DNA of 64,000 nt from a virus (IMGVR_UViG_3300020577_005688:1-64000); one strand, 5' to 3'. Positions 15,169-52,629 are shown, counted from the first letter of the stretch. Notes: generated by a model from the sequence alone, not told the origin. A program made the numbers and translations.

Positions 15169-15969
15169 TTATTTCCTAGGCTTCGGAGTGCCTGATTCGA
15201 TTCGCACTCTTTGCACAAGAGAGAGGGTCTTATCGTAGTTCAGGACTCTTCCATTCATCCCTGGTTTACGGATCTGCACGGCTCCCTGAGCCGGAAAGTT
15301 GAGTTCAGACGTTAGGGCCAGGTCGATGTGTTTGAGAAGCTTTTTGTCTTGAGGACCAATTGACCAATAGTCTTGGAAATAGAATGGCACCGAGACGGAT
15401 ACCATCACTGCTTCGTTGTCTGACTCATTTGGAACAATCATCCCAGGAGCTGACTCAGAACCAACTTGAAGGTCTTCTCCAACTCGGTGAATGCCTGCCT
15501 TCATGAGAGACTTCTTGAGGCGACGAGTCGCCATCATGGAAATCCAAGCAATACGCTGCGCTTCAAGACCTTCCTTTGAAATGCAGTTGTACGTCATCGT
15601 ACAGGCAACTAGGTCTGTGTAGCGTTTTGTGCCAGAGAGAGGGTCATAGTTCGGATGAGCCATGTCTGCCCCATTCTTCGGGAGCGGACCTGGACCAGAG
15701 AACTGGTCGAGAGAGATATTCCCGAAGGAGGCAGGGCCTCTTGCCAAGAGGATAGCGGGTCTCTTCTCGACAACCTCACGAGCCAGAGTTGCTTGGTCGG
15801 AGATGATGATGTCCGTCAGAGACTCATCATCAGACCACTGGTAATTCCCCTTCTCAAACGTCGCGAACGCCAACTGAAGGAATCGAACGAACAAACGGGT
15901 GTAGTGGAGAAGAGGATCCTCTCCCGGTCCTTGTGGTTGTGGAAGACCCGTTTGAACCTTGGAACTCAT
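15169..15969 (-). CDS. Putative tail terminator/completion protein
   Basis: Immediately upstream of the sheath; RPAILL and TYNC elements. Confidence 0.5.
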   Translation of the reverse strand: MSSKVQTGLPQPQGPGEDPLLHYTRLFVRFLQLAFATFEKGNYQWSDDESLTDIIISDQATLAREVVEKRPAILLARGPASFGNISLDQFSGPGPLPKNGADMAHPNYDPLSGTKRYTDLVACTMTYNCISKEGLEAQRIAWISMMATRRLKKSLMKAGIHRVGEDLQVGSESAPGMIVPNESDNEAVMVSVSVPFYFQDYWSIGPQDKKLLKHIDLALTSELNFPAQGAVQIRKPGMNGRVLNYDKTLSLVQRVRIESGTPKPRK

Positions 15970-16292
15970 TTGTTCGCCTCTTTGCGCTCTTTATCCAACC
16001 AACTACGAGCAACGTAGGAGCCGGCCAATGTCAAACCAAGACCCGCTCCAAGGAGTTTCTTCTTTTGAGAGGAGCCAAGATTCTCCCACTTGTGGCCAAG
16101 CATCTTCTGAAAAGCCTTGTCTGCCAACATAGCAGTGCCATAGCCAGCCCCAGTACCGGCAGCAATTGTAGCAGTAGACTTAGCGAAGTTCTTGAGCTTC
16201 CTCTTTGACTCTTCTGACATCGCAATCTTCAGCAACTCATCTCTGAGTGCCACGATTGTGACCGAAGAATCTGTAGATGTCTTGGTAGTCAC
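15966..16292 (-). CDS. Small basic Gly-zipper protein with DELLKIA leader (putative capsid cargo)
   Basis: LRDELLKIA followed by two Gly/Ala hydrophobic helices; GTG start after GGAG, overlapping the upstream gene. Confidence 0.7.
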   Translation of the reverse strand: MTTKTSTDSSVTIVALRDELLKIAMSEESKRKLKNFAKSTATIAAGTGAGYGTAMLADKAFQKMLGHKWENLGSSQKKKLLGAGLGLTLAGSYVARSWLDKERKEANK

Positions 16293-17145
16293 CTGGCTTC
16301 TCCACATTATGCGGGTTGGTGAAGTTTCTGCTTGCTGCTGGTTGCAGAGCCTTCACATCGATATTGATGGGGAGGTCAAACTCAACGTCCCCTCTTGGGA
16401 TTTCGTGGAGAGTCAGTTCTTGGTGAAGAACTGAACGAAGTCGTTGTGTGGATGCGACAGTTACGACCCGCCATCTCCGGTTCTCTGATTCTACAACAAT
16501 GTCTCGTGGAGAGACCGGAGGGAACGAAATCATACGAGCAGTTGTATTCCCTGGTTGCTGCTCCTGCAGAGAATTGAGTCCAGTCTGTTTGTTGCTTGGG
16601 TCGAACTGAATGAAGGTCTCGACTGGATGTAGGAAACCACCCAACCAACCTGTTCCGAAGCATGTCGCGTGATTGGCTCTCGTCTTCCTTCCGAGAACTC
16701 TGTCGTAGCAAGTACAACGGGGCCCAAAGGTCCTTACTGGAAACAACCAACACTTACGCCCGACAAACTCACGAAAGAGGATGTCCTCAAGTCTATTGAC
16801 CTCTGCGGCGATGAGGTCTGGTTCTGGGTCGGAGCTATTGGTTGGTTGTGTTTCGTATGTCTCACCCGTTGGGCGGTGGACAATTCGAATCTTGTAGTAG
16901 AGGGTTCTCCATTTGTGGAGAAGAGAAACACGGGCATCCCTGAACGAGTAAGTATCTCTGAATGGACCCCCGACTTGGTCATACGGACCCATGGCTGCCT
17001 CAGAGCGCAACACATAGAAGTCGTAGTCGTAAATCTCGTGTGGGGCACTTTCTACTGTAGGACCAGCAACTGGTGAGATTTCCCAGAACAGGTCCAAGTA
17101 GTCGAGAGTAAAGGAACGAACAACGAGCTTGGTAACCTCAATCAT
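16237..17145 (-). CDS. Putative head-closure/neck protein
   Basis: Position in the morphogenesis cluster; RCTC...TCFGTG Zn motif; beta-rich C-terminus. Confidence 0.55.
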   Translation of the reverse strand: MIEVTKLVVRSFTLDYLDLFWEISPVAGPTVESAPHEIYDYDFYVLRSEAAMGPYDQVGGPFRDTYSFRDARVSLLHKWRTLYYKIRIVHRPTGETYETQPTNSSDPEPDLIAAEVNRLEDILFREFVGRKCWLFPVRTFGPRCTCYDRVLGRKTRANHATCFGTGWLGGFLHPVETFIQFDPSNKQTGLNSLQEQQPGNTTARMISFPPVSPRDIVVESENRRWRVVTVASTQRLRSVLHQELTLHEIPRGDVEFDLPINIDVKALQPAASRNFTNPHNVEKPGDYQDIYRFFGHNRGTQR

Positions 17146-17894: not shown

Positions 17895-17904
17895 GGGAAA
17901 CCTC

Positions 17905-19877: not shown

Positions 19878-19878
19878 T

Positions 19879-27463: not shown

Positions 27464-27931
27464 TTAAGCTCCGCATCTCATGAAATCGAACTCACTTTGA
27501 GGCACGGTGCCTGGCTTCAATGAAATATCATTGAACTGATGGTAAAGAGAGACAGTACGGAATGAGAAAGCACAATCTAGCCTGTATCGCTTCGTGTCGT
27601 CCGAGCTCAGAAAAACGTTGAACACGAATGATGGTGCAGACCAGAAGGTAGACAGAATAATTGGCGGAGCACCGGATTCTACCAGGAACGGCATGCAGTT
27701 TCTTGGATCCGTCGTATCCAACGCCAACTTCTCCTCATTATCACTTAGGAGGAGTTGGATTGCTCGAACAGAACCGAAGTCGGCCATCCGAAGTCTAAGA
27801 AAGGAGCCCTCTTTTTCCAAAATACAATCAGAGACGGTCATTTCCCTCACAACGGAAGCAGAGACTTCGTTCTGAAGTCCTTTCTTGATTGTAAGGAAGA
27901 TATCCGAAACTGAGGAGAGGGCTACATTCAT
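27464..27931 (-). CDS. Hypothetical protein
   Basis: ORF coupled within the late operon. Confidence 0.65.
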   Translation of the reverse strand: MNVALSSVSDIFLTIKKGLQNEVSASVVREMTVSDCILEKEGSFLRLRMADFGSVRAIQLLLSDNEEKLALDTTDPRNCMPFLVESGAPPIILSTFWSAPSFVFNVFLSSDDTKRYRLDCAFSFRTVSLYHQFNDISLKPGTVPQSEFDFMRCGA

Positions 27932-28710
27932 GGAGATACCTTCGGAGTCTTCATCTCTGAAGACATAGACTTTCCGAGAGTCTTAAGTCCGTCGTGACCA
28001 CTCTTACGGGCTGCACGGGCAAGCATCTTCGTCCCATGAGCAGCTCCAACACCGGCAAGAGCGCCACCTCCGACATCTGCTGCAAAGGTTCCAATACCCT
28101 TGTTAGGGTCATTGCTCGTCATATACTTCGCAGCGCCCAAACCAGCTCCAATCATGGCTCGGTGGCTCGCCTTAGAGTCGACGACAGCCTTTCCAACACT
28201 CCCAATCGCTTTTCCAGCATCAGCCCACGAAGCCATCTTCTGGAGGGCGGTTGAGAAAGTCTCGTATGTCTTGTGCTGGGAGCGTGCGAGTTCAGCTCCG
28301 AAATCTTGTGCGAACTTCTCAAGGTTCGACTTCACAGAGGCTCCTTTGAGTTTTCCAGCAATGGTCTTTCCAAAAGCGGCACCAACAGGAAGAGCAGCCA
28401 TAGCAGCTGCACCTGGATGCTTTGCATTCAAATCGGCAATCTCGTCCCGAGCATTCGAGACGATACGAGCCATCCCCTTTGCAAAGCTCTCATCCTTCTT
28501 TGCCTTCAGTCGTGGCTTCTTCTCTCCCTGGTCCAACGAACGACCACTCGCACCAGGGCGGCTGACCAGATAAGTACCGAGAGCAGCAAGACCACCGCCT
28601 CCCACCATACCGATGAGGTCGTGAGGATTGTTCTTTGCGTAGTCAATAGCACTTCGGATTCCATCCGAGGCCACTTCTTTGAGTCCGGCTCTCTTGGAAA
28701 GCATAGGCAC
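27928..28710 (-). CDS. Basic Gly-zipper protein with KxA sites (putative capsid cargo)
   Basis: SKRA, EKFA and QKMA sites separate two modules of paired Gly/Ala hydrophobic helices. Confidence 0.75.
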   Translation of the reverse strand: MPMLSKRAGLKEVASDGIRSAIDYAKNNPHDLIGMVGGGGLAALGTYLVSRPGASGRSLDQGEKKPRLKAKKDESFAKGMARIVSNARDEIADLNAKHPGAAAMAALPVGAAFGKTIAGKLKGASVKSNLEKFAQDFGAELARSQHKTYETFSTALQKMASWADAGKAIGSVGKAVVDSKASHRAMIGAGLGAAKYMTSNDPNKGIGTFAADVGGGALAGVGAAHGTKMLARAARKSGHDGLKTLGKSMSSEMKTPKVSP

Positions 28711-31624: not shown

Positions 31625-31634
31625 GACTGAGTCC

Positions 31635-35933: not shown

Positions 35934-36206
35934 CTACAAATCTCCCCTCGGGAATGCGACAGGGGGTGGTTGGATTACTTTCGAACTCTCAGCAAGATCC
36001 GTTGAAGTTGCCGGTTGGGTCGGATCCTTGTGGACTTTGCTGTAATTTGGTTGTTTTGTCGACAGTGCCGTTCCCTTGCGAGAAACTACTTTCGTCACTT
36101 CCCCAACAGTCGCTGGCTTAACTGCAGCCATTCCAATCTTTTGGAGCTCATCTGAGAACCCCATCAACATTTCCAAACTGAGCTTGGGGATGTTGATGGA
36201 ATTCAC
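35934..36206 (-). CDS. Small protein with FSDELQKIG leader
   Basis: Shares the FxDELxKI motif with other cargo-like ORFs. Confidence 0.65.
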   Translation of the reverse strand: MNSINIPKLSLEMLMGFSDELQKIGMAAVKPATVGEVTKVVSRKGTALSTKQPNYSKVHKDPTQPATSTDLAESSKVIQPPPVAFPRGDL

Positions 36207-36260: not shown

Positions 36261-37070
36261 TTACTCGGCTTCAGCCTCTTCCGACTCGAACTCATAGCCT
36301 TCTGCCTGGAGAAGCTCCATTGCACGGGCCTCAACAGCAGCAGCAAGAGCGTCAGCAGGATTCGAAGCGGTCTTCTCTTCGACCTCTGCCTCCTCGTTGT
36401 AGTCGATGCCATTCTCAGCAAGGATCTCAAGAGCACGCTGAGCCGCGAGCGTGTCAAGAGCGGAAACCGCGCTCGACTTCTTGTCCTTGTACTTCTTGGC
36501 CGCAGCTCCAGTACCAACGGCCCCAGCACCAGCAACGCCCAGAGCCTTCACGGAATTCTTGTTTTCCTTGATAGTCCTCTTCACTCCGTGGGTCTTGACG
36601 CTATCCTTGAGGGCAGAAGCAGCCTGACGAGGGCTCTTGGCCATGTACGCGAGGTCCTTGAATCCTCCCTTCACATCCTCCTTGTGACGCTTGAGGTGGC
36701 CCATGACCTTTCCAGCAGTCTCCTTCACTCCTGCCTCCTTCTCGATGTTCCTGAGCTCCTGAACATACGAGTGAGCCATCACGCGGCCGAGGTAGTCAGC
36801 TTCGGCGAGCTTCTCAGAGGCCTGCTTCTCCTCAGTCTCCTCCGTTGCCTCAGCCTCTTCGGTCTCCTCAGCTGCCTGAGTCTGCTCGTCAGCACCCTGA
36901 GCGAGAACTTCCTGAGCGAGGGCCTCGATCTGGTCCTCAGACATGCCTTCGAGGTTGAGGGACTCGTCACCAGCGAGCTTCTCAGCGAGTTGAGCAGCGG
37001 CCACCTTCTCAGTGTCCTGGGTCTGCTCTTCCGAGTTCGTTCCGTAGATTTCTGCGAGACGTGGATCCAT
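36261..37070 (-). CDS. Acidic scaffold/core protein with an internal basic cassette
   Basis: EKVA, EKLA, EKQA, EKEA and EKTA sites; strong codon bias; hairpin downstream. Confidence 0.75.
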   Translation of the reverse strand: MDPRLAEIYGTNSEEQTQDTEKVAAAQLAEKLAGDESLNLEGMSEDQIEALAQEVLAQGADEQTQAAEETEEAEATEETEEKQASEKLAEADYLGRVMAHSYVQELRNIEKEAGVKETAGKVMGHLKRHKEDVKGGFKDLAYMAKSPRQAASALKDSVKTHGVKRTIKENKNSVKALGVAGAGAVGTGAAAKKYKDKKSSAVSALDTLAAQRALEILAENGIDYNEEAEVEEKTASNPADALAAAVEARAMELLQAEGYEFESEEAEAE

Positions 37071-37181: not shown

Positions 37182-38762
37182 TTACCTCTCAGTGTATGCG
37201 CCCTGCAAGTACGTCACTGAATCGGGAGATAGGATTGAAGCGGTAGTGGCTGTCTTGTCAAACAGACTCGACAGGCGCACTCCGTAAACCTGCTCTCTCA
37301 ATGTTGGGTCGCTCTCAACCACTGCCTCAACCTTTGAAATCTTCGTCATGATGTTTTGCCTATAACCGTTATAGGCAGCACTGACTTTATCCAAGAGAGG
37401 ATGTTCGATTGGTTTACGGGTGGGAAGAGGGATTTTTTCTACCGAGACCCTAATGGAACGGTGCTTGAGAGGTTCGCCGAATCCGGAACGGGAACTGAGG
37501 TAGGGCTTGAGCAACTCAAGGAGTCGTGAGCCATGAACAGATGGGTCCGCGTCAAGCATTGAGTTGACACCTTCAACTCGTCTAAACACACCGTTACTTG
37601 AATCAAGCTCATCAGCAAAGTCCCTTTCACCCATTCTAATGAGGACAATCCTCTGGAACTCGTGGGGCTTGAGAACAATACCAAGTCCCATGGAGTTTCC
37701 AACGATTTCCTTCAAAGGATGGGTCTCCGCCATCTCATCCAAGGTCTCTGGCTTGATGTCTGGCTCGGAAGCCTCCAAAGCTGGAAGGACCTTCTGAGTG
37801 AAGTGACCTGCAGGAACCTGCTTCACGATTTCGCTTGTCTTGACTGAGAAGCCTTCGGCGAGCTTTTCGAATGGGTCGCATGTTCCACACCCACAAGCAC
37901 ACGAGGCTGCAGCAGCTTTGAACATTCCAGCGAGAGAAGGAGAGTTACCTGCAGTGACCTCTTGGACATGAGCGGAAAGAGATGGGACAGCACAGATGTC
38001 TCCAAGGCAAATCACATCTCCCCTTGATGCCACCTTCGCCATCACCTTCGCAGTTTTATCAGCTCCAATGAATACGAAGCTGATGTCGAAGAACTTTGGC
38101 TGCGTGTTGATGACGTAGATTCTGCGGCCATCTGGGAGAATCTTGTTTGGGCCATAGACGCTCCGGAGTTCCGGAGGAGGCATCATGTGCTGACAGTAAT
38201 CGAAACGCGTCTTCGACTTCTGACCACAGATTGAGCAAACGTCGAATGGGACCTTGCACCCCATCGACACGTCTGGGAACTCACCACCTTCGATTCTGGT
38301 GATGATGCCGTCAGCCTGCTCTTCTTTTGCTTTCGCCCTATCAAGTCGAACAATCAGTTCGACTCTCTTCATCGGATGGTTCAGTACAGAGAGAACTGGA
38401 ACACCGAATGCTCTGGTTGGGTCCTTGTTCTTGTGGTGCTGATAAGCGTGGGCAAAGGTCTCAAACGTCTTGTAGCCGTAGTCGTTGCCTTCATGAGCCA
38501 AGGCATTCCACGGAAAGAAGTCTGCATTGATGTTCGAGCCGAAGTACTCACCAGCACCCAAAGCATTCACCAGGACGTAGACGTGCTTCTTTCTGTCCTC
38601 TTTGGTGAGCTTTGAGATGTATTTCCTCAGAGCGTCTCCAGTCTCCCAGTCAGCAAATGGAGGAGCTCCTGCCTGCTTCTCAAAGGCCCCACTGGAGCCG
38701 AAGAGAGACTGACAGAAGATCCCCATCTCAGTCTGACCTTGAAACTGAATCTGCTTATCCAT
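37182..38762 (-). CDS. Prohead (capsid maturation) protease with Zn-finger insert
   Basis: QHH, DVSMGC, CSICG...CQH and FFDISFV..GAD motifs of the HK97-type protease fold; upstream of scaffold/MCP. Confidence 0.75.
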   Translation of the reverse strand: MDKQIQFQGQTEMGIFCQSLFGSSGAFEKQAGAPPFADWETGDALRKYISKLTKEDRKKHVYVLVNALGAGEYFGSNINADFFPWNALAHEGNDYGYKTFETFAHAYQHHKNKDPTRAFGVPVLSVLNHPMKRVELIVRLDRAKAKEEQADGIITRIEGGEFPDVSMGCKVPFDVCSICGQKSKTRFDYCQHMMPPPELRSVYGPNKILPDGRRIYVINTQPKFFDISFVFIGADKTAKVMAKVASRGDVICLGDICAVPSLSAHVQEVTAGNSPSLAGMFKAAAASCACGCGTCDPFEKLAEGFSVKTSEIVKQVPAGHFTQKVLPALEASEPDIKPETLDEMAETHPLKEIVGNSMGLGIVLKPHEFQRIVLIRMGERDFADELDSSNGVFRRVEGVNSMLDADPSVHGSRLLELLKPYLSSRSGFGEPLKHRSIRVSVEKIPLPTRKPIEHPLLDKVSAAYNGYRQNIMTKISKVEAVVESDPTLREQVYGVRLSSLFDKTATTASILSPDSVTYLQGAYTER

Positions 38763-38774
38763 CGAGGTCACCAA

Positions 38775-39491
38775 TTAGAACGGCGATGAGGATCCTTGGT
38801 TCTTCTTGTACTCTTTGCGGTCTTCTGAATCAGAGCGGAGCTTTTCCCTGTAGTCTTCCTTCTTCTTGAAGTCTTCGAATGTCTCCCTGCCTTCTGACTT
38901 ATCATTCTTTAGCATCAGAGGTGCAAGCTTGGAGACTTCCTGGAAGTGCTTCGATTTGGCGTTGTTGATGTTTGACTGAGTAGAGATGATGTCCTGCATC
39001 GTTTTGTAACTCTGACCAGGAAGCTCAGCAACGATCCTCAGCAGAGAGCCTCCAACAAGAGGGTCAGAGGTCATATCGGGAGCAAAACGATGGATAGCAT
39101 TGAAAGCCATCGTAAGATCTTTCTTATTCAACTCTCTCTTTAGAGACGGGTTAGCTTCCATAATTCGCTTAAAGTTTCGGCTCTTTGTCAGACCTCTCCG
39201 AGCGGCGTCATAAAGATCAGTTGCGGCTGAGCTCATAACACCAGCAGCTACACTCGATCCAAGGAGTACACCCACTCTCTTGGCCGTATCTAGAATCGTA
39301 GACTGAGAGACTTCTGCTGTCTTCTCCTTGATGGTCTCAAAAATGACCTCAAAGTCACGAAAGATGTCTTTCGTAAACTCGGGAGCAAGCTTGTCACTCA
39401 ACGCAATGACTTGTGCGGTCTTCGCCATCATCTCTGGCTGAAATTCTTCGACTTCCTTCAAGAGTTCTTCAAGAGTCATTTGATTCTCCAA
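38775..39491 (-). CDS. Putative internal head protein with KTA sites and a hydrophobic helix
   Basis: AKTA and EKTA then VGVLLGSSVAAGVM. Confidence 0.7.
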   Translation of the reverse strand: MENQMTLEELLKEVEEFQPEMMAKTAQVIALSDKLAPEFTKDIFRDFEVIFETIKEKTAEVSQSTILDTAKRVGVLLGSSVAAGVMSSAATDLYDAARRGLTKSRNFKRIMEANPSLKRELNKKDLTMAFNAIHRFAPDMTSDPLVGGSLLRIVAELPGQSYKTMQDIISTQSNINNAKSKHFQEVSKLAPLMLKNDKSEGRETFEDFKKKEDYREKLRSDSEDRKEYKKNQGSSSPF

Positions 39492-39494: not shown

Positions 39495-39929
39495 TCAGAT
39501 TTGGTGATTCTCTGGGCGGAAGCCCTGTTTGAATTGCTTGTACTTAGAAGGGGCTTTTGCTGCAGAAGACATCAGCATCGCTCCACCCGCGACAGAACCA
39601 GCGACAGGAAGAACCCCATGCTTTCCTGCTTGATTCTTGAAGTGATTGGCAATCCGACCCATCACTCCACGTTTCTGAGCTGCAGGAGATACTGGGGCTG
39701 TCTTTGGAGCAGGTGCTTGTTGCTTCACAGGAGCAGTTGCTGTCGGAGTTGACACAGGAGCGGAGGACGGTGCCGCTTTTGAGGCTGCTTCTGCTGTGGC
39801 TTTATTTTGAAGTGACTTGAAAGTAGCCTGACGTTCTACCATCGAGGCACTTGCGCCCATACCACGGGCGGCAGTCTTACGAAGTGCATTTGAAAAGGAG
39901 GCAATCTTTTTCAATCTCGAATGAAGCAC
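39495..39929 (-). CDS. Basic cargo-like protein
   Basis: KKIA and RKTA leader; C-terminal GVLPVAGSVAGGAML helix. Confidence 0.65.
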   Translation of the reverse strand: MLHSRLKKIASFSNALRKTAARGMGASASMVERQATFKSLQNKATAEAASKAAPSSAPVSTPTATAPVKQQAPAPKTAPVSPAAQKRGVMGRIANHFKNQAGKHGVLPVAGSVAGGAMLMSSAAKAPSKYKQFKQGFRPENHQI

Positions 39930-39931: not shown

Positions 39932-41035
39932 TTAACCTCCGAAGTTCGTTGGAGGTACAGGAGCGGGCTGCTTCTTTGGAACCATAGATGCCGCAGTTGC
40001 AACGGTTGAGACTGGGTTCCGCTTCATCTCACCAATTGCATTACGGGCGAGTGACCCACCCAATGTCTTTGACTTCAACATAGAGGATCCAGCAGCGAGA
40101 AGACCCCTCCCAGCTGCCATAACGGCAGGAGCGAAGGCACTCTTGATGAAACTATTGACATCAGAGAGCTCGGACTGAACTTCCTCAAGCGCAGTCATGG
40201 TGGTCCTCAAGTCCTCACCAGACATGATCATTGCTGAGTATGACTGAATGAGTGGGTGAGTGGGGTCGACCAGACCGTGAGCCAACTTTTCCCCTTCGGC
40301 GAGCTGCTTCTTTAGCTGCGAGACAGAAGCAACCTTCTCCTGAATAAGACGACCGACGATGGGTTCCAAAAGAGTCTTGGTCTCATCGCCAGTGATTGTC
40401 TCGGTTGCAGCGTAAGCCTCGCCGAAGGAGCCTCCATCAAGAATGTGACGCTTGAGCACGTCGTAGAACTCAGACGCCGCCTCCTTGAAGAGGGACTCAT
40501 GCTGGTTGAACCTATCCATCAGGTTATCACGCAAGGAAGACAGAGTCTCCTTTGCAGACATGACCTCATGGACGATTGTTTCTTTGCTGTAGTTCTTCTC
40601 TTCTCCGGCCGTCTTGAACATGTCGGCCAGACCCTGTTCCGTCTCCTTCGAGGAGGTCTTCACCTTCTTGATTTGCCTGTTGTAGTCGATGTCGGTGTTT
40701 GTTACCACCGTTGGACGAGCTCCATCGGACAAATCCTGAATCACTCTTCCAGCATCTGCGAGGTCGAACTGAGGATAGCTGTGGTCAGAACCAGCCGTCT
40801 TATCTTGGTCGTGCTTTGCGAGGTACACAGCCGTGTTCGCAAATTCAACGACTCGCTTAACCTGCTCCGGCGAGATATAGTCATGCTGAGCAGCGAGCTT
40901 TGAGATACTGTCATTCAATGACACGCCATCCCTCAGAAACATGGTTGCAGCTTCTTTGCCCATCATCTCAAGAGACTCGGGCGAAAGCTTGGCGTGATTC
41001 TTTCCGCTCAAGAGGTAGTCTGTAAACTCATCCAT
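39932..41035 (-). CDS. Putative internal head protein with multiple KxA sites
   Basis: KLA, KTA (twice), KEA, KVA and KSA; amphipathic tail after IKSA. Confidence 0.75.
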   Translation of the reverse strand: MDEFTDYLLSGKNHAKLSPESLEMMGKEAATMFLRDGVSLNDSISKLAAQHDYISPEQVKRVVEFANTAVYLAKHDQDKTAGSDHSYPQFDLADAGRVIQDLSDGARPTVVTNTDIDYNRQIKKVKTSSKETEQGLADMFKTAGEEKNYSKETIVHEVMSAKETLSSLRDNLMDRFNQHESLFKEAASEFYDVLKRHILDGGSFGEAYAATETITGDETKTLLEPIVGRLIQEKVASVSQLKKQLAEGEKLAHGLVDPTHPLIQSYSAMIMSGEDLRTTMTALEEVQSELSDVNSFIKSAFAPAVMAAGRGLLAAGSSMLKSKTLGGSLARNAIGEMKRNPVSTVATAASMVPKKQPAPVPPTNFGG

Positions 41036-42316: not shown

Positions 42317-42359
42317 AGAGTGCGCACGTTTCCCTCCTTTACCGTGCGCACTCTTTTTT
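42317..42359 (+). terminator. Intrinsic (probably bidirectional) terminator
   Basis: AGAGTGCGCACG/CGTGCGCACTCT stem plus T-run. Confidence 0.8.
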
Positions 42360-44151
42360 AGGCCTCAGAGTCCAATCCTGACGTCTTCGCAGTAGGAGAA
42401 AGAATCTCGGGTCGCGGGTACTTGAGCATCGAAGCCAATGTGCAGAGCAAGATAGAGTGGAACGTGTCGTCTGTAGCGTCCGGGGTCTTGGAGTACTGAA
42501 TCTGTCGAAGCTGCTCATTGTATTCACTGAAGATGTTGAGCAGGTCCTTACCGAACGGATCCTCAAACTGCTCCCATCGAGGGAATCTGAAGAAGTCCCT
42601 CCTCTTGATAGCAGTGAAGATGTCGGTCATCACTTCAGTGCGGTGTACGAGGAAACGATGGAGCTTCTCCTCCCACTTCACCTTCTGACCTGGGTTTGAG
42701 TACTGATACTTGACGATACGGTTCTTGCTGAACATACGAGCCAGCGCGTCATTTCGATCGAAACCACCACCGTAGTCGACACCAATCAATTTGACGTCCC
42801 ACCGTCTGATGAGCTCTCCAATCAGCTCCAACTGAACGGGTGGTTCCATCTCCTGACCTTCGAAACGGTGAACGTAGAAGATAGTAAATCTGCCGTTCAC
42901 ATACGTTCCAAGAGAAATGATGGTGTACGTGTTCTCACCAGTTCCCCAGTCGATTCCAGCAAAGATGTCCATCCCACCAGACATCTTGTTCTTCAATGCC
43001 TGCATACCCTCAGCAGTCATCAAGAGCTCTGGGTCACAGTTGTCCATCACATCTTGTTGAGTAAGGGGCCTCATACCGGAGTCGCAGGCTTCTCCGAGAA
43101 CCTCATTGAAGAACTTTGGTTGAGAGTAGGTTGTGTAGGAGTCTAGAATCTCACTCCACTTCAACCAAGGAACCATCAACTGTGGGATCCGAAAGCCTTC
43201 GTACGGCTCAGTGAGCTTCTCTTTGACTGAGGCGTTCATCATTGCCCAACGAGACTCATTCCGCATTGGGTGGATGATTTCACCGCACTTGGCACAGATA
43301 AGACCCTTCTTCCCGATGTTCTGCTCTCCAAGAATGTTCCAATACCAAGTGGAAGGGTCTGATGGGACTCCATGGTGGTCGCAAGGAACAACCCACTCAT
43401 TCTGGGTTGAGTACTTCGTCCAGTAGTACTCAATCGAGTTATCGAAGGACTTCGGTGTTCCAGAGTAGATGAAGATCTTGAACGGAGAGTGAGATGCACA
43501 CTGTTCAATGACCGGGATGTTCTCTGTGATGATGTCCTGCAGCTCGTCAAGCAGGACCATGTCAGCTGGGATACCACGCGTTCTATCTGCGTTGTGGTAC
43601 GCGTACCTGAGAGTCACTTGGCTTCGATTGATGAACTTCTTCTGGAAGACGTTGTCGCTGAGCTTCGACGTCGTCCAGGCCTTCAGTACGTCTGAGGTCT
43701 CGATGGGCTCCTTCAGACGGTCCTGTGAGAAGGTCTTTGTTTGCTGGTTGGTGGGAGACACATACAAAACATTGAACGCGTTGATGATGCAACAGTAGGA
43801 GAGAGTCTTGTTACCGAGCAGGGTAGACTTCTCGACCTGACGACCGCACTTGTAGAGAGTACGCTTGGATGGGGTGTCGTAAGGAAGTCGAAGATACCTG
43901 CGGCCCTCGAACGAGAAGGGCAAGAACTTCTGGGACTTCTTGTCCGGAACTTTGACGGCAAACTCTACGAACTGAGACGGGGTTACTGAGAGAAGGGTCG
44001 ATTGCTTGAGCGCGAGCTCATCCTCATCTAGGAAGCCTTCGTACACTTCCTTTTCGTAGTCCCACTCTTCCTTGAGCTCAGGCTCTCCGCTCTCAGAAAT
44101 GACGACGTTGGCGTTGTTTCTGAAGTACTCTTCGCTTGAGACGACAGTCAT
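42358..44151 (-). CDS. terL: Terminase large subunit
   Basis: GRQVEKST Walker A variant, LLDE, SGTP, nuclease AGIDWG and DD.FHS. Confidence 0.9.
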   Translation of the reverse strand: MTVVSSEEYFRNNANVVISESGEPELKEEWDYEKEVYEGFLDEDELALKQSTLLSVTPSQFVEFAVKVPDKKSQKFLPFSFEGRRYLRLPYDTPSKRTLYKCGRQVEKSTLLGNKTLSYCCIINAFNVLYVSPTNQQTKTFSQDRLKEPIETSDVLKAWTTSKLSDNVFQKKFINRSQVTLRYAYHNADRTRGIPADMVLLDELQDIITENIPVIEQCASHSPFKIFIYSGTPKSFDNSIEYYWTKYSTQNEWVVPCDHHGVPSDPSTWYWNILGEQNIGKKGLICAKCGEIIHPMRNESRWAMMNASVKEKLTEPYEGFRIPQLMVPWLKWSEILDSYTTYSQPKFFNEVLGEACDSGMRPLTQQDVMDNCDPELLMTAEGMQALKNKMSGGMDIFAGIDWGTGENTYTIISLGTYVNGRFTIFYVHRFEGQEMEPPVQLELIGELIRRWDVKLIGVDYGGGFDRNDALARMFSKNRIVKYQYSNPGQKVKWEEKLHRFLVHRTEVMTDIFTAIKRRDFFRFPRWEQFEDPFGKDLLNIFSEYNEQLRQIQYSKTPDATDDTFHSILLCTLASMLKYPRPEILSPTAKTSGLDSEA

Positions 44152-45641: not shown

Positions 45642-45643
45642 GG

Positions 45644-46099: not shown

Positions 46100-46110
46100 T
46101 GAGTGGCTCC

Positions 46111-46578: not shown

Positions 46579-47374
46579 CAGGAGCGAGCATCTTGATGTC
46601 GGGGGGAGGGATCTGAGGGTGCTCCATTCGGAATCGCTCGAAGTTCTTCAAGATGTCCTTCAGAGCCATGTCCGAAGTTGAGAGGGCTTCGTGACAGTCA
46701 ACGATGGTCTTCCCAAGGACGCCGATAGCCTTGACCTTGTCCGGCCCAGTTCCAGGCTTCCTACTGACCTCTTCAATGGTGAAGTAGGCAATCTCCTGCG
46801 TCCTCTGAATCATCGTCTTTGAGTCGATTGCCTGTTGGAGCTGCAGGTGAAACATTGCGAGCTCTGGTGTTGCTTGGAGCATCGACATGTACCGTTCGTA
46901 CATGCCTGACCTTCCATACAAGAAGCGACCCCACTCATCCCACGTCAGAAGGTCGACATTCCAGAACATGTCATGGAAGGCACCCATGCCCTCTGCTGAG
47001 AGGTGCCATCCGTGTTTCTTGTTCAAGCGAAGAGCGATGGCTTTTCGATCGAGTCGTGCGAGAAGAGCTTGCTCGACATTCAGACGAACGAGAGGGTCGC
47101 TCAGAATCTTCCACGCTTGTCGTACACCATCGGTCGGGTGGAAGAACTCGAAGATACCGTGTTTTCGAAGGAAGTTCATCGAAGGACGGTGAGCTCGGTT
47201 TGTGTAATCAAACCCAGGAGGCTCGTCCTTCAACTCTTGCTTCAAGAAATCGAGGTACACCGTCTCAGGAGTGAGAAATCCCCAATCCTCCAGATTCTTC
47301 AAAATCTCTGGAGTCTTGATGTTCTCGTCCTTCACCATCAAGTACTTGATGAAGTGGTGTGCTGGATGTTTCAT
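46517..47374 (-). CDS. Helical hypothetical protein (possible small terminase-like)
   Basis: 285-aa coupled ORF; the function is a guess from proximity to terL. Confidence 0.6.
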   Translation of the reverse strand: MKHPAHHFIKYLMVKDENIKTPEILKNLEDWGFLTPETVYLDFLKQELKDEPPGFDYTNRAHRPSMNFLRKHGIFEFFHPTDGVRQAWKILSDPLVRLNVEQALLARLDRKAIALRLNKKHGWHLSAEGMGAFHDMFWNVDLLTWDEWGRFLYGRSGMYERYMSMLQATPELAMFHLQLQQAIDSKTMIQRTQEIAYFTIEEVSRKPGTGPDKVKAIGVLGKTIVDCHEALSTSDMALKDILKNFERFRMEHPQIPPPDIKMLAPGGNFTGSGVEEKQTEKAMGR

Positions 47375-48174
47375 GACAGGTTCGAGATCTGAAGAAGCTC
47401 TTGAAAGAAAGAGGGGAGACGCATTCCGAGCTTATTGAAATCTGAGCTCTTCTTGAATGCCTCCCATGCATTATTGATGTCTTGCATGTCCTTGGTATTT
47501 CCACCCCTATCTGGGTGATGCTTTGCAGCCTGCTCGCGATATTTCTTCTTTGCATCTGCCTTCGTTTTAACGTCTTTCAACCAATCGGGGGTCCTGACGT
47601 TCTGAGGAGGCTTTGGAGGAGGAGCATACCCTCCGGCATTCGAGGAGCCACGTTGATTTTGATAGTTCTGCCGAGCTTCCCGACTCTTCCGTTCGGTGTC
47701 TGCCCATTCCTTACCAAAATCCTGCCAACGACTTTTGAAGTCTTCCCAATCTTTGTCACTCTTCTCTTGGTGAGATTTCCACTTTGCCTGAGTCTCTGCT
47801 CTTCTTTTTTCGTACCTGAAATCGTCTGCTCTCCACTTCCTTCTCATCTTGATGCTGCTTCTTGTGAGATCTTTATCCATACCAGAGAAAGAGCCAATAC
47901 CATGGCCGAGGATACCTCCGGTTGCGGCGGCACTAATCACTGCGCGTCTCTGGTTTTTGAGTATTTTCTTCTTCTTTTTTTCAGGCAGCTTTTTGAAGTG
48001 CTCTGATTTTCTGATAGACCTCACACCTGCGTATGCAGAAGTCCCACCAGCAGCGGCCCCGATACCGGCTCCAACAAGTCCTCGACGAAGTTCGTTATTC
48101 GTCTTGAGGACTCTCTTGGCATGAGTAAAAGCGCCCTTCAGAGACCTTTTGAACGCTTCTTTTGTTTCTGACAT
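47371..48174 (-). CDS. Gly-zipper protein with C-terminal J-domain (HPD)
   Basis: GAGIGAAAGG and TGGILGHGIG helices; KKKYREQAAKHHPDRGG...QDINNAWE. Confidence 0.8.
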   Translation of the reverse strand: MSETKEAFKRSLKGAFTHAKRVLKTNNELRRGLVGAGIGAAAGGTSAYAGVRSIRKSEHFKKLPEKKKKKILKNQRRAVISAAATGGILGHGIGSFSGMDKDLTRSSIKMRRKWRADDFRYEKRRAETQAKWKSHQEKSDKDWEDFKSRWQDFGKEWADTERKSREARQNYQNQRGSSNAGGYAPPPKPPQNVRTPDWLKDVKTKADAKKKYREQAAKHHPDRGGNTKDMQDINNAWEAFKKSSDFNKLGMRLPSFFQELLQISNLS

Positions 48175-48177
48175 TGA

Positions 48178-50832
48178 TCACTCCTGCGAGTACTGAAGAG
48201 CCTTCAACGAGAGGATAACCTCTTCCATGTTCTTCATTGACCGCTCGACTGCTCCAATCGGGATTTCCTTCATGCCGAGGTAACCAGCAAGAACCATCTC
48301 AGCCATCTTCTCAGAGCACTGCTCAAGCTCTGGCAAGAACTCGATGAAGGTCGAGAGGTTCTCTGGATTGATGAAGTTCAAGGCCAAGACTTTATCGACT
48401 GTACCCTGGTCTTCCATCTGGGCGGCTTCCTTGATGAGGTCCTTCCTCAAGTCAGGGAGCTTGGAGAGAAGGCTGGAGGCTGTCTTCACAGACTCCTGGA
48501 ACCTCTCAGCCAATGGAACAATGGTCTTCAACCCAGCGAGCTTGACCGAGCCGGTCCTCCGAGCCTCAGCAACCTTCTGCTTTGCGGTCACACCATCGAC
48601 GCCAAGAAGACCGAGCATGAACTCAGCACTCACGGCATCGAGACTGTGCTTCAAGTCAGCAGCAACCTTGTCGAGGCCACACCCACCAACGATGTTGAAT
48701 GCACCGTTGTAGAAGAGAACAGCAGAGGTCTTCTCTCTGTTCACCTTCTTGGAAGAACCCACAGACTCTCCCTTTTCTGCGAGAGAGACTTTGGAGTTGA
48801 GACGAGTGAATCCCCAACCATGTGGGAGTGCGTACTCATCTTCTGCAATCTTCTGAGGGGTCTTGAGGCCTGGAATGATAGAGACCTTCACTTCGTTTCC
48901 GAAGGAATCGACTCCAATATAGCGCGGAACTCCATCGGACCCATTCATTCCAAACTTCACTTCGATGGGAGCAGAGGCCTGCGTCCCATCGGAAGAACGG
49001 AACACACCAAGACCCTTTGGAATGTCGATAGGCGGAGACACATCCTCTGACTCGACCTTCTCTCCAACGATGTCCTGCTGAATGGCGTGACCCTTTTCTC
49101 CAACAAACAGGCCAGTCTTCTGAGGTGAGAACGACTCGTCCCAGGCAAAGGTCTCTGGGAAGACCCAACCTTCCATGGTCTTTCCAGCAGTCGTCTGGAC
49201 CTTGTAACGACCGAACTCGGAAACAGCAGAAGTGTCTGAAGCTTCTTCTGTGTCGAGTTCAACTGGGTCAGAAACAGCAGTTGCTGTCTGGCCAGGCTGC
49301 ATTGCCTTCGCGACTGGAGCCCCAATTGCCTCTGCCACCTCTTCAAAGGGCACGACTTGACCCTGAGCTTGGGCACCGCCTGCAAACGCCTGAACGTTTG
49401 CCGACTTCACCATGAAGGCTCCACCTGGGAGCTTCTGGAATGTCACAACAGAGGGCTCAATAGAATCGGCAAGCGTCTGCAGACGGTCATTTGCAGAAGC
49501 GAGCTTCGTGTCCATCACTTCGACAAGAGTCGCAGCAATGCCAGACTTCTTGAAACCCGCACGGAGGAACGGATCCGCTGCAACCTTCTCAACAAAGGCA
49601 TCCCTATCCGACTCTCGAAGAGTAGGAGCAATTGCTTGGAGAAGTGACGCAGTCTTCACTCCAGGCGAGGCAGCTGGCTTCTGTGGTTGAGCAGAAGACT
49701 TTTGAGCCTGAGCTGTTGCCTTTTGAGCCTGCTGACCTGGCGAAGGTGGATATACCTTTGGGTGGTATCCGTATTGGTTTGCGGCGATTGAGTAGACCTC
49801 GTTGATCACCTCTGGGTGGTCGTGGGTCATGTGCTTCTGAATCATCTTCTGAATCTTGTCGCTCTTGTAGATGGCCTCCCACTGCTCTTTCGAGATGTGC
49901 TTGAAGGCCTTCTTCTCCTTTGGCTTTGCTGCTTTTGGAGCCTTGGGAGCGGGAGCAGCCTCCTCCGGTGCTTCTTCCATTCCCCCTTCTTGAGCAGCTG
50001 CATCGAGACCCTGCTCATGTGGAGAAGGAGCAGCAGCCATCTGAACACCGGCCTGAGCTGCCAAGAGCTCTACATCAAGATTCCTCTTCTCCAAGTGGAG
50101 AGCGTCACGCTGAAGATTCTTCGCCATGCGCTGTGAGGCACGACCGGAAGACTCCTCAATAGTCTGCTCCATCTCACGCTGTGAGAGGTCCTCTTGGTCA
50201 AGAGTGAGAAACTGCTTCTGAAGTTCAAGAGCCTTCTCGAAGAGGGCGGTTCCAACATACTTCTTGAGCCACTCATCTCGATAATCGAGACTCGGCGAAG
50301 GTGATGACGAAATGGGCGAGCCCGCCTCAAGGGCCATTGCCATCTTGTACTCACCACCCATGCCGATTCCCGAACGCTGCGGAGGCATCAGAGGCTCGAC
50401 AAGACTTGGGTCTCTCGGCACAGATGTAGAGAGGTCAAACATTGCTGGGTTGAAGAGCGTCTCACGAATTCGCTCTTCACCGAGAGGAAGGACGCGCTCT
50501 CCATCCAAGAAGACGGAGAACGGACGTACTTGCCTCTCCTCCGCTACGAGAGGGATTCGAATATGAGGAATACCAGCCTCCTCATGCTCGATCTCTGGGC
50601 GTTCTGTCCTGTTCGCAACGTCAGCATAACCAAAGGCAAACCCACGCCCTTGATCAACCTTGTCGAGAGAGACATTCACTTCGTAATCAGACAGGAATGG
50701 ATACTGGCGGTGAAGTTCGCTGCCAATCTCCTGGCCCCAGTTATCTGGCGTCTCAGACAGACGATGAGTGAATCCAGCTTCCTTGGTCTGAGGCTCTTCA
50801 GTTGTTGCTGGACGCAGAAACAGTGAACGCAT
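48178..50832 (-). CDS. Large putative internal head protein with many KxA sites
   Basis: 884 aa; more than 12 K-x-(A/S) sites. Confidence 0.75.
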   Translation of the reverse strand: MRSLFLRPATTEEPQTKEAGFTHRLSETPDNWGQEIGSELHRQYPFLSDYEVNVSLDKVDQGRGFAFGYADVANRTERPEIEHEEAGIPHIRIPLVAEERQVRPFSVFLDGERVLPLGEERIRETLFNPAMFDLSTSVPRDPSLVEPLMPPQRSGIGMGGEYKMAMALEAGSPISSSPSPSLDYRDEWLKKYVGTALFEKALELQKQFLTLDQEDLSQREMEQTIEESSGRASQRMAKNLQRDALHLEKRNLDVELLAAQAGVQMAAAPSPHEQGLDAAAQEGGMEEAPEEAAPAPKAPKAAKPKEKKAFKHISKEQWEAIYKSDKIQKMIQKHMTHDHPEVINEVYSIAANQYGYHPKVYPPSPGQQAQKATAQAQKSSAQPQKPAASPGVKTASLLQAIAPTLRESDRDAFVEKVAADPFLRAGFKKSGIAATLVEVMDTKLASANDRLQTLADSIEPSVVTFQKLPGGAFMVKSANVQAFAGGAQAQGQVVPFEEVAEAIGAPVAKAMQPGQTATAVSDPVELDTEEASDTSAVSEFGRYKVQTTAGKTMEGWVFPETFAWDESFSPQKTGLFVGEKGHAIQQDIVGEKVESEDVSPPIDIPKGLGVFRSSDGTQASAPIEVKFGMNGSDGVPRYIGVDSFGNEVKVSIIPGLKTPQKIAEDEYALPHGWGFTRLNSKVSLAEKGESVGSSKKVNREKTSAVLFYNGAFNIVGGCGLDKVAADLKHSLDAVSAEFMLGLLGVDGVTAKQKVAEARRTGSVKLAGLKTIVPLAERFQESVKTASSLLSKLPDLRKDLIKEAAQMEDQGTVDKVLALNFINPENLSTFIEFLPELEQCSEKMAEMVLAGYLGMKEIPIGAVERSMKNMEEVILSLKALQYSQE

Positions 50833-50841
50833 GTGTTCTCC

Positions 50842-51945
50842 TCAAGCGGGACTTGCCAGAAGGGTTGTTGAAGTCATTGCAGGTGCCGGAGGTGGCACAA
50901 GAGGCGGGGTGGTGGGTTGTGGAGGACCGCCAGGAATTGCAAGGGCAGGGTTTGGGACAACAGTGTGAATATGAGTGCTCAACCACGTCAAGAGTGGGAT
51001 GGCGAGTGCAACTGGCTGAGGCGAGTTACCGACCAAGACTGTTGACCCCATTTGAATAGTTGGAGCACCTTTGATGGTGACCACTCCAGTAAGAGCTTGG
51101 ATGGTTACACCGGATTGCCCAGAGACTTCAACTGTACTCCCACCAGAAATCGTGACTTTTGAAGCGCTCTTCACCAAGACGTCCTGCTGCGCATCGATGG
51201 TGAACTTCCCTTTTACTGTCCAAAGAACATCTTTCTCCACCGTCCAGCTTACATCTCCATCCTTATTGAGAGTCAGAGAGATCTTCCGGGCTGCCCCAGA
51301 AGCACCTGACTCTTTGATAACCAGACTCAGGATAGTCTTTTGACCGCTCCCATGGGAACCTACTTGAAGTTCGGCGAGAGGCTTCTCATCTGAGGCTTTC
51401 TCTCTTGCTGAAATCTTCAGGGTCGTTGGGCGATTTCCATCTGTATCGGTTTCTGTTCGTTGAACAGTCCAATCCAGGTCCCCGCCGATTGTCTGGAGAG
51501 AGTAGTTCTCGCAGAAATCTTTGATGGTATTCGTCACAGGAAGAAAGAGCCTCTGACTCAGAGGGCCGCCACCAATCTGAACAACGCCTCCTCTCCGAAG
51601 AATCAGAAAATTCTCATCCCTCGTACCGAGGTAGATGTCACCTGGATTCAAGTCTGGTCTGCGAGATCTGAAATTGCCTTCCTCTGCAGCAGCAGCCCAT
51701 CCCAGTACAAAAGGACGATTGCCGTCAGATGGAAAGCAAATCCAACAGAGGCTCCCTACTTCCGGCATGAAGTGGATTCCCTCACCGTTTACAAAGTGAA
51801 GGTAAGGAGTGGACCACGTAATTCCAGTTTGTGGTTTCTTCGAGAACTGAGTCGTAACAGAGAGTGTGAAAGAGCTGATGTCTACATCAAGCACTCTTCC
51901 AGACTCAATGAATGCAGGGCTTGTTCCTTGGTGAGTGACAGCCAT
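50842..51945 (-). CDS. Baseplate central spike (gpV/gp5-like)
   Basis: OB-fold MPEVGS...PFVLG, beta-strand repeats, apical HxH (THIH). Confidence 0.8.
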   Translation of the reverse strand: MAVTHQGTSPAFIESGRVLDVDISSFTLSVTTQFSKKPQTGITWSTPYLHFVNGEGIHFMPEVGSLCWICFPSDGNRPFVLGWAAAAEEGNFRSRRPDLNPGDIYLGTRDENFLILRRGGVVQIGGGPLSQRLFLPVTNTIKDFCENYSLQTIGGDLDWTVQRTETDTDGNRPTTLKISAREKASDEKPLAELQVGSHGSGQKTILSLVIKESGASGAARKISLTLNKDGDVSWTVEKDVLWTVKGKFTIDAQQDVLVKSASKVTISGGSTVEVSGQSGVTIQALTGVVTIKGAPTIQMGSTVLVGNSPQPVALAIPLLTWLSTHIHTVVPNPALAIPGGPPQPTTPPLVPPPAPAMTSTTLLASPA

Positions 51946-51954
51946 CGTGCCTCC

Positions 51955-52629
51955 TCAAGGAGAGTTATACTGTTTAATGGTTTTTTGTTCTTGGAGGTCC
52001 GTCAGTCTTCTCCTTGCGTGTCTTGAGAGACGAGTACCCGACCCATATGGAATTCGAGCGGGCATTAGTGACGCTTCACCAATACCCTCTCTATAGTGCT
52101 TCATATGAGCCCTAACTGCCTCATTTCCGGGAGGGAGGGTCGCTAGACGATTGTGCTCCCGAAAAATAACATCTGGGCTTCTATGACCGTAATGGGCGGC
52201 TCCAATTCGTCCACGAACGGAAGATTCGTCAAGTTCGTGACCTTTAACAACTGCATGAAGCATCTTTCTTTGGTCCGCAGGGACCTTCGGAGCATTGCCG
52301 AGTCCTCCGAGAGTTGAGCTGTGCATTTGCTTTTGAATAGAACCACTGCCCGGAAAAATAGCGGGTCGGTCTCTGACGAGCTTCGAGACGGGCTGGCTCT
52401 CTACTGCCGATCGAACGTGCTCACCTGCACCCGGAGAAATCAAGTTGGCACTTCTAACGGCGTCACCAACGAGTCGACTTTTATTTGGGGAGGCAGAGAG
52501 GAATGGCTGTACTCGTGCAGACGCTTTTGGAAGCTGAATTCTCTTGGCAAGAGACAAAACCTTAGAGGCCTGATCAGCACCAAAAGCAATCTTTACTAGC
52601 TCATCAGAGAAAGACTCAAAGGAGATCAT
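51955..52629 (-). CDS. Basic protein with FSDELVKIA leader (putative capsid cargo)
   Basis: TAATG coupling to the RNAP stop; GHELDE/GH/EH residues in the C-terminal half. Confidence 0.75.
   Translation of the reverse strand: MISFESFSDELVKIAFGADQASKVLSLAKRIQLPKASARVQPFLSASPNKSRLVGDAVRSANLISPGAGEHVRSAVESQPVSKLVRDRPAIFPGSGSIQKQMHSSTLGGLGNAPKVPADQRKMLHAVVKGHELDESSVRGRIGAAHYGHRSPDVIFREHNRLATLPPGNEAVRAHMKHYREGIGEASLMPARIPYGSGTRLSRHARRRLTDLQEQKTIKQYNSP

Follow-up and report, generated by a model that had tools for sequence, protein, structure and literature searches.

The head proteases of T4 and of phiKZ/SPN3US recognize a motif by its P3 and P1 residues and cut after a P1 Glu, and both systems include short N-terminal targeting propeptides (PMC5694885, PMC10052503). 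The capsid targeting sequence (CTS) of T4 is a 10-20-residue N-terminal peptide that is common to unrelated, mostly basic internal proteins (IPI-III and Alt) and is removed by the protease gp21 (PMC5694885, PMC9026906). Here we describe a candidate counterpart in the head-assembly module of a large uncultured phage of about 190 kb. The stretch of DNA that was analyzed, IMGVR_UViG_3300020577_005688:1-64000 (the window), comprises the first 64 kb of a 141,350-bp IMG/VR virus record that is estimated to be 75% complete, and its late genes occupy the minus strand between about 11.5 and 60 kb. Our subjects are a Lys-x-Ala (K-x-A) motif that is dense in head proteins, a putative prohead protease, and an N-terminal leader that ends in the same motif and precedes otherwise unrelated proteins. 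We think it fairly probable that the phage uses a system of the T4-CTS/gp21 type with a new specificity, in which a Lys-x-Ala protease acts together with a cleaved capsid-targeting leader on cargo proteins. Genes are named by their first coordinate.

Open reading frames (ORFs) were called over the whole 141-kb record and motif counts were compared with 300 composition-preserving shuffles per protein. A complete collinear relative, G001 (IMGVR_UViG_3300017774_005745; 196,807 bp, with terminal repeats), shares 45-95% amino-acid identity, gene by gene. A protease profile search recovered at least 244 relatives in IMG/VR on contigs of up to 210 kb, from which 80 loci were kept, and the locus scan took every plus-strand ORF within 10 kb of the protease, unselected. 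Members of this lineage measure about 170-210 kb, with Salmonella phage Arash and Vibrio phages, and perhaps also phage G, at its edges. Arash and Vibrio phage D181 are the only cultured close relatives. The published Arash virion proteome lists 116 of 252 proteins without peptide-level data (PMC10585845), and the multi-omics study of phage G used a tryptic-only search and did not report cleavage sites (PMC12484599).

The Lys-x-Ala motif and the putative prohead protease

A first-pass annotation of the window had noted that K-x-(A/S) recurs in the proteins of the head cluster. The recurrence proved larger than had been noted. In nine head-module proteins (32809, 34495, 34878, 36261, 37182, 38775, 39495, 39932 and 48178) we counted 47 K-[ILVMT]-A, with 8.5 expected (z 13.8), and 22 EKxA, with 3.1 expected. 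Ser at the third place is only weakly enriched (9 versus 5.9 expected), and Gly is not tolerated there. Outside this set the motif is not dense, as had been judged by eye, with 60 occurrences against 52 expected in the other 117 ORFs of the record. When every one of the 400 a-[ILVMT]-b patterns was scanned without bias in the head set, K.A was the sole outlier (z 13.5, runner-up 3.9). The reverse pattern A.K was depleted (2 versus 8.1 expected) and R.A was flat (3 versus 3.9), showing that Arg is no substitute for Lys. Since the shuffles preserve composition, the depletion of A.K and the flat R.A exclude composition and helix periodicity as the cause, and they speak against Lys/Ala composition alone, which the first-pass annotation had itself raised. 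The logo of the site is [E/D]-K-[L/T/V/I/M]-A-[S/A/E/G], with zero information outside these five positions. The head-module features on which these and the following results rest are:

42358-44151, minus strand: terminase large subunit of the late region (phrog_675, E 3e-61)
37182-38762, minus strand: prohead protease, 526 aa from MDKQ, weak match to phrog_18299 'head maturation protease' (E 2e-6)
38670-38678, minus strand: protease site K29-Q-A31, kept in distant homologues
38028-38036, minus strand: protease site K243-V-A245-S at the end of the catalytic domain, invariant against Arash and D181
32809-33933, minus strand: major capsid protein (MCP), 374 aa from MSAVPA, phrog_2522 major head protein (E 1e-10)
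33853-33933, minus strand: predicted 27-residue N-terminal propeptide of the MCP, ending KEKIA
34495-34857, minus strand: 120-aa acidic helical head protein, five K-[ILV]-A (0.4 expected, z 7.6) plus KLS
34878-35927, minus strand: 349-aa Lys/Glu-rich scaffold-like protein, nine K-[ILVMT]-A (1.6 expected, z 6.2)
36261-37070, minus strand: 269-aa acidic scaffold-like protein with a Gly-zipper segment, four K-[ILVMT]-A and six EKxA
38775-39491, minus strand: 238-aa head protein with a Gly-zipper segment, four K-[LT]-A (0.6 expected, z 4.5)
39932-41035, minus strand: 367-aa head protein, five K-[LTV]-A (1.0 expected) plus KLS and KTS
48178-50832, minus strand: 884-aa protein, ten K-[ILVMT]-A (1.7 expected, z 6.6)

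The protease gene lies between the terminase and MCP genes. Its tblastn matches include the proteases of Rhodococcus phage E3 and Gordonia phages, Bacillus phage G gp19, Salmonella phage Arash gp222 and Vibrio phage D181. The catalytic domain spans about residues 40-246, and the C-terminal half is poorly conserved. We modeled residues 1-261 with AlphaFold2 from 33 homologues (pLDDT 75, pTM 0.73). In an exhaustive structural search the best match of the model was T4 gp21 (5JBL, chain 5jbl_A; Z 9.6, rmsd 2.9 Å over 135 residues), followed by the protease of varicella-zoster virus (VZV; 1vzv_A, Z 8.3). The human cytomegalovirus (HCMV) and Kaposi's sarcoma-associated herpesvirus (KSHV) proteases scored Z 5.6 and 4.8, and the first unrelated chain Z 6.4. 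With Foldseek, the top three matches were all 5JBL chains (E 0.02). According to the model, the protease carries the fold of T4 gp21 and herpesvirus assemblins with its seven-stranded beta-barrel core. H109, H110 and S166 are invariant among the 33 homologues and are candidate catalytic residues.

The protease itself carries conserved sites. Among the 33 homologues (42-92% identity) K29 is invariant and A31 nearly so, within an otherwise variable stretch. Compared with Arash and D181 (33-35% identity), K29/A31, K243-V-A245, K282/A284, E299-K300/A302 and K503 are invariant, and most of these sites fall in the otherwise poorly conserved C-terminal half. Together with the fold, this conservation supports in silico the K-x-A-specific prohead protease that had been proposed from the sequence. 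A complex prediction of the protease domain with the 35934 family scored 0.00 (mark 0.32), which gives no verdict and is evidence neither way. The catalytic domain also contains a C-x-x-C...C-x-H cluster (C176, C179, C190 and H192; 38025-38240, minus strand) that is invariant in 33 of 33 homologues and, judged by its residues, is probably a zinc site. We know of no counterpart in gp21 or the assemblins.

In the MCP, 46 of 47 distinct homologue N-termini place K-x-A exactly five residues ahead of a [YF][IV]RxxLRE anchor. Between the Lys and the Ala stands I, V, L, M, A, E or F, and Glu or Asp precedes the Lys in 42. From this fixed position we predict a propeptide of about 27 residues. The individual sites quoted in the first-pass annotation are present, namely FEKVA and KEKIA at the MCP N-terminus and GADKTA at the end of the protease domain, where AKVAS lies as well. 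For the 34495 protein, cutting at its sites is predicted to yield pieces of 12-29 residues, and the protein is therefore considered scaffold- or core-like. The predicted pieces of the scaffold-like proteins measure 7-80 residues, at an approximately 5-fold site enrichment, and in the 34878 protein every site is kept as K-x-[AGS] in G001. The 39932 protein is a homologue of Arash gp220 and D181_0275, which are K-x-A rich as well (6 versus 0.9 expected and 7 versus 1.1). The 48178 product is possibly the portal; it has no family match, no similarity to the phage G portal, and a weak C-terminal similarity to Arash gp218 (E 0.002).

The motif is conserved beyond single proteins. Across the 80 related loci, K-x-A ranks first of 400 a-x-b patterns in 37 and among the top five in many more, and one marine clade has no locus-wide excess. 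In G001, 43 of the 47 sites stay K-x-[AGS], and the site Lys is conserved in 95.7% of cases compared to 82.7% for other Lys in the same proteins (p 0.025). Arash gp225 is likewise enriched (4 versus 0.5 expected), and phage G gp19 and gp21 moderately so (8 versus 2.4 and 7 versus 2.7). Conservation in homologues, which the first-pass annotation had suggested checking, was thus found in the protease, the MCP and one cargo family across distant relatives. No Lys-x-Ala prohead-protease motif is described in the literature that we searched, and its absence there is not proof.

An N-terminal leader ending in the same motif

The first-pass annotation had read an extended form of the motif at the head of unrelated small genes, and LRDELLKIA (15966), FSDELQKIG (35934) and FSDELVKIA (51955) were confirmed. 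The record has six copies of the core DEL-x-K-I-[AG], all of them close to an N-terminus, compared with 0.006 expected and a maximum of 1 in 2000 shuffles. Beyond the window it is carried by the genes at 64297-65289, 66207-66755 and 114505-114831. The leaders of the three window genes are 15-29 residues long, and the leader end, K-[IL]-[AGS], matches the motif enriched in head proteins. G001 retains five of the six copies and adds three more. Between the DELLKIA codons of 15966 and those of G001 we counted four synonymous and zero amino-acid changes, indicating that this leader peptide is translated. The leader-bearing genes of the window and the variant forms are:

15966-16307, minus strand: leader-bearing basic protein with two Gly-zipper segments, cargo 84 aa
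16221-16307, minus strand: leader of 15966 ending LRDELLKIA, start codon uncertain; canonical FQDELLKIA in G001
35934-36206, minus strand: leader-bearing small basic protein, cargo 65 aa, Pro/Thr/Lys-rich
36132-36206, minus strand: leader of 35934 ending GFSDELQKIG
51955-52629, minus strand: leader-bearing protein, 224 aa from MISFES, cargo 209 aa
52585-52629, minus strand: leader of 51955, MISFESFSDELVKIA
39495-39929, minus strand: 144-aa basic protein with a variant 20-residue leader, MLHSRLKKIA-SFSNALRKTA (39870-39929); KLS and KLA at these sites in G001
32379-32732, minus strand: basic Gly-rich protein of 117 aa that opens with MSLQKIA and has another site, ...FLDLEKNA (32640-32732); MSLEKIA and LEKIA at the same places in G001
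27928-28710, minus strand: 260-aa basic Gly/Ala-rich protein with an internal FSTALQKMA (28231-28257); K-M-A kept in G001

Across the 80 loci the same leader opens many ORFs. Five to seven ORFs within 21 kb of the loci L062, L066, L068, L073 and L075 begin M-x-x-F-L-x-G-F-A-D-E-L-x-K-[ILVT]-[AG], and a DNA pattern for F-x-D-E-L-x-K has 5-7 matches per genome in five whole relatives and 0 in a reversed control. The 57 strict instances (53 distinct) give the logo M-x-[IP]-[MF]-L-x-[GAS]-F-x-D-E-L-x-K-[IL]-[AGS]. A Met lies at most 30 residues from the motif in 44 of the 57, and the leader is exactly 16-17 residues long in 30. Phe, Leu and Ile at i, i+4 and i+7 would form one face of a helix, and residues 4-12 of the 51955 model are folded as a helix. 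In about seven of the strict instances the motif lies inside a small or scaffold-like protein beside the protease (AGRIMARGFADELxKLA). In the window, the scaffold-like 36261 protein has an internal leader-like motif, LGRVMAHSYVQEL...KEA, a diverged copy whose counterpart in relatives is this same AGRIMARGFADELxKLA. A portable N-terminal tag ending in K-x-A, as proposed by the first-pass annotation, is hence supported in silico, being lineage-wide and present on unrelated proteins.

Among the variants that had been listed along with the leader, FSNALRKTA (39495), FSTALQKMA (27928) and the form in 32379 retain K-x-A in G001. We do not accept the C-terminal FFQELLQIS of 47371 as a tag: it has no Lys, it is not N-terminal, and the gene is missing in G001. 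The 47371 product (47371-48174, minus strand) is basic and 267 aa long. It has Gly-zipper segments close to the N-terminus and, C-terminally, a J-domain-like stretch with HPD (Pfam DnaJ E 2e-5, narrowly missing the cutoff; phrog_13942 E 2e-9). Separately from the long leader, some head-module proteins start with a short M-x-x-x-K-[IL]-A (MSLQKIA at 32712-32732, MMHSKLA at 35907-35927 and MLHSRLKKIA at 39900-39929, all on the minus strand), and Arash has the starts MSLHKLA and MDLHKAA (Arash 54867-55253 and 30356-30622). From their sequence, these starts may be a minimal propeptide of 7-10 residues.

The 53 distinct cargoes fall into 36 BLAST clusters, are 45-326 residues long, and nearly all have a pI of 9.3-12. 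Beyond the leader, the cargoes show no excess of sites (K-[ILVMT]-A 1 versus 2.9 expected; K-x-A 9 versus 11.3). Tagged proteins thus carry one K-x-A at the leader junction and no internal excess, as expected for proteins that are trimmed and kept. Pfam searches with 48 tagged proteins returned two Peptidase_C92/NlpC-P60 amidases, both in relatives (E 1e-10), and one weak kinase match. The first-pass annotation had described the cargo as basic Gly-zipper proteins. The basic character was borne out; the limitation to Gly-zipper proteins was not, since the tag also stands on a confidently folded domain (51955) and, in two relatives, on the C92 amidase. Apart from one Pro, the columns that stay invariant in the 35934 family (six homologues) all belong to the leader, namely F, D, E, L, K and I.

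Two adjacent leader-bearing proteins of G001, at L012:16377-17151 and L012:17739-18624 (both plus strand), are not in this record. The second is sub-threshold to protein kinases (E 0.008). We do not claim the first as an ADP-ribosyltransferase, its PARP/Tpt1 matches being sub-threshold (E 0.03-0.05; TM 0.34/0.58). If these sequence similarities are real, the pair would be tagged effector enzymes like T4 Alt.

The 51955 family allowed the closest view of the junction. In 47 of its 51 metagenomic homologues a strict pattern places K-x-[AGS] (A 41, G 4, S 2) directly ahead of a conserved mature start [FY], and three more have it there by eye. The leaders of this family are 5-23 residues long. Only 14 columns are invariant, among them the leader Lys as well as H131-E-L-D-E135, H149, E158 and N160, an H-E-x-x-E...H cluster. 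The AlphaFold2 family model is mostly helical (pLDDT 93.9) and describes a confidently folded domain of about 200 residues. Foldseek searches of PDB and BFVD with this model gave no match at E 0.001 or better, and the best VIA-align hit reached Z 3.7, which is no clear fold match. Zinc peptidases recur among these structural matches at Z 3-3.7, which is not significant. A PDB profile search gave spurious LRR matches only, and the ESM Atlas no usable lead. Based on the model, the domain may represent a new metallohydrolase-like fold.

Some further proteins touch these subjects. Directly beside 51955, the 367-aa product of 50842-51945 (minus strand) begins with an OB domain of the gpV/VgrG type (Pfam Phage_base_V E 3e-4, narrowly missing the cutoff) and is likely a baseplate spike. 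The C-terminal 80 residues of the protein at 29930-31690 (minus strand) show a sub-threshold similarity to the TcdA/TcdB pore-forming domain (E 0.0024, 16.7 bits, cutoff 27), which is probably not meaningful. Outside the window, at 66766-68406 of the record (minus strand; L015:2766-4406), a 546-aa protein adjoins the leader-bearing genes 64297-65289 and 66207-66755. It contains 12 K-x-A against 4.7 expected, including five KTA, and by its sequence is probably a further processed head protein.

Possible roles of the leader and its cargo

Read in the P3-x-P1 register of T4 and phiKZ, the Lys of K-x-A occupies P3 and the Ala P1, and the next residue is small, in keeping with the site logo. In the system that we favor, the protease would recognize Lys-x-Ala and cut after the Ala, with an aliphatic residue or Thr at P2 and a small or acidic residue at P1'. 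Where sites are dense, the scaffold-like core proteins 34495, 34878 and 36261 would be chopped into short peptides. Single sites would serve for removal of the 27-residue capsid propeptide, for cutting the protease N-terminus and for release of the catalytic domain. The leader, with the same terminal motif, stands on unrelated, mostly basic proteins, three in the window and six in the record. It would act like the T4 CTS and draw its protein into the assembling prohead core, where it would be clipped, leaving an intact mature internal protein that departs with the DNA. We infer the cleavage, the scissile bond, and the targeting, retention and ejection of the tagged proteins.

Several observations weigh against this interpretation. 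The head set that yielded 47 sites versus 8.5 expected was picked partly by the enrichment itself, and the protease gave no Pfam match even at E 10 and no PDB sequence match. The bond after Ala is the most likely one and is placed by analogy; a cut after Lys is the alternative. A DEL-type core is present in only 22 of the 47 leaders of the 51955 family, and the FxDELxK DNA pattern was not above control in Arash, D181 and G008. Since Arash and D181 keep the K-x-A enrichment without an FxDELxK leader, the tag is not essential to the lineage. The invariant element is thus the cut site, and the FxDEL helix, lacking in Arash, D181 and G008, is common but dispensable within a family.

A more far-reaching version of the favored system can be put forward tentatively, and we would give it less than an even chance. 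It holds that the lineage shares a modular capsid-loading code, in which the leader copies a docking motif of the scaffold and the tagged protein is co-assembled, cut after Lys-x-Ala and carried along with the DNA at delivery. On this view the amphipathic leader of 16-17 residues would be a copy of the AGRIMARGFADELxKLA motif in the scaffold-like protein beside the protease, any protein that acquires it would join the prohead core, and the protease would have a herpesvirus-like P1-Ala specificity. The cargo would comprise basic DNA-associated or Gly-zipper proteins together with enzymes, in the window the H-E-x-x-E metallohydrolase-like domain and in relatives the C92 amidase and possible ADP-ribosyltransferase-like or kinase-like proteins.

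The first-pass annotation had described the cargo as paired Gly/Ala hydrophobic helices, and tagged Gly-zipper proteins might be ejected as membrane-active peptides, with the host envelope as their target. We regard this as rather unlikely. In its favor, 15966, 27928, 39495 and 47371 carry Gly-zipper segments, which are uncharged, G/A/S/T-rich, 14-20 residues long and flanked by basic residues, and one of the 48 tagged proteins from all loci, a relative, matches Pfam Gly-zipper_YMGG (E 3e-5). However, the hydrophobicity is weak: the segments have a mean hydropathy of 0.8-1.5 and a 19-residue Kyte-Doolittle maximum of at most 1.5, below the usual transmembrane level. No protein of the window matches the families Gly-zipper_YMGG or Gly-zipper_Omp at E 0.1 or better, and two of the three window leader proteins, 35934 and 51955, lack such segments. 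The high pI suits DNA-associated internal proteins equally well. By analogy, these features can be accounted for by helices packing in the prohead core, or by strongly basic proteins associating with DNA, as they do in T4.

The leader could instead be a propeptide and not an address. It would present the site, as an exosite or high-affinity substrate, or keep the protein inactive until head maturation, and entry into the prohead would depend on other contacts. This would suit the 51955 family, where the leader shrinks to five residues (MKKTA) with K-x-A still in place, and the retention of sites in leaderless Arash and D181. We nevertheless find it unlikely, because the same 16-17-residue peptide with its hydrophobic face occurs on about 36 unrelated cargo clusters, in protease lineages only 35-60% identical. 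A shared leader of fixed length exceeds the needs of a three-residue site, and a leader-like motif also lies within the scaffold-like protein beside the protease.

Quite improbable, in our view, is that the leader-bearing proteins are parts of the assembly core or scaffold that are expelled or degraded at maturation, and not cargo that is kept and delivered to the host. Many cargoes are low-complexity tails rich in Pro, Gly, Ala and Lys, Gly-zipper segments are common to cargoes and the scaffold-like 36261 and 38775 proteins, and 35934 sits within the head-assembly block. Yet the cargoes have fewer internal sites than expected whereas the scaffold-like proteins are 5-fold enriched, and some cargoes are folded and enzyme-like (51955 at pLDDT 94; Peptidase_C92 at E 1e-10). 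Finally, an origin of the K-x-A excess in chance, composition or coiled-coil periodicity, or in Lys as a modification or cross-link site, is conceivable for Lys-, Ala- and Glu-rich helical proteins and still very improbable, because, against composition-keeping shuffles, A.K is depleted and R.A is flat, and because the sites mark the borders of domains and propeptides and stay conserved although their middle residue varies.

Comparison with known systems

If the favored system is real, motif and leader would allow probable internal or injected proteins, with function not assigned, to be listed from sequence alone for this almost uncultured lineage, and would provide a rule for placing the mature N-termini of its capsid proteins. 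The portable 16-residue tag could serve to load capsids with foreign proteins, a use to which the T4 CTS has already been put. Encapsulin cargo-loading peptides are short, portable, usually C-terminal and uncleaved; without any protease they bring unrelated cargo into an HK97-fold shell. Their likeness to the leader described here is one of logic only.

Herpesvirus assemblins cut after Ala in (V/L)-x-Ala|Ser, and the catalytic domain releases itself at such a site. They share the predicted fold (VZV, HCMV and KSHV proteases) and the Ala before a small residue, often Ser. However, P3 is hydrophobic in herpesviruses and Lys here, and to our knowledge herpesviruses have no family of tagged cargo proteins.

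The proteases gp175 of phiKZ and gp245 of SPN3US resemble the present case in that many head proteins are processed at a P3-x-P1 motif, with multiple cuts within propeptides (PMC10052503). Furthermore, that protease sheds its own C-terminal part by a self-cut, and these too are large phages with many internal proteins (PMC10052503). In contrast, their motif is (A/S/G)-x-Glu, the propeptides are mostly long (111-254 residues) and not one common tag, and about 80% of the SPN3US head proteins are uncut (PMC10052503).

The likeness to T4 is closer. As with the CTS, a short N-terminal peptide is common here to unrelated, mostly basic proteins and ends in the presumed three-residue motif of the protease; in T4 this motif also serves to chop up the core scaffold and to trim the capsid protein, as it would here. 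Both proteases have a fold in common, by the model (Z 9.6 to 5JBL). T4 internal proteins have no excess of sites compared to the chopped scaffold, which is the same contrast as between tagged and scaffold-like proteins here. On the other hand, T4 uses (L/I)-x-Glu with a cut after Glu and the phage described here Lys-x-Ala, the leader sequences are unrelated, and the protease here has no Pfam family, a Cys/His cluster and a 280-residue C-terminal extension. In T4 the function has been demonstrated; here we infer it from the genes alone. The architecture is that of T4 (CTS and gp21) and of phiKZ/SPN3US. What sets the present case apart is the proposed Lys-x-Ala specificity, the sequence and strict length of the leader, and the breadth across a nearly uncultured lineage. 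If true, Lys-x-Ala would be a third specificity class for phage head proteases of the gp21/assemblin fold, beside (L/I)-x-Glu of T4 and (A/S/G)-x-Glu of phiKZ, and a P1 Ala as in the herpesvirus proteases would link both branches of this fold by specificity as well as by structure.

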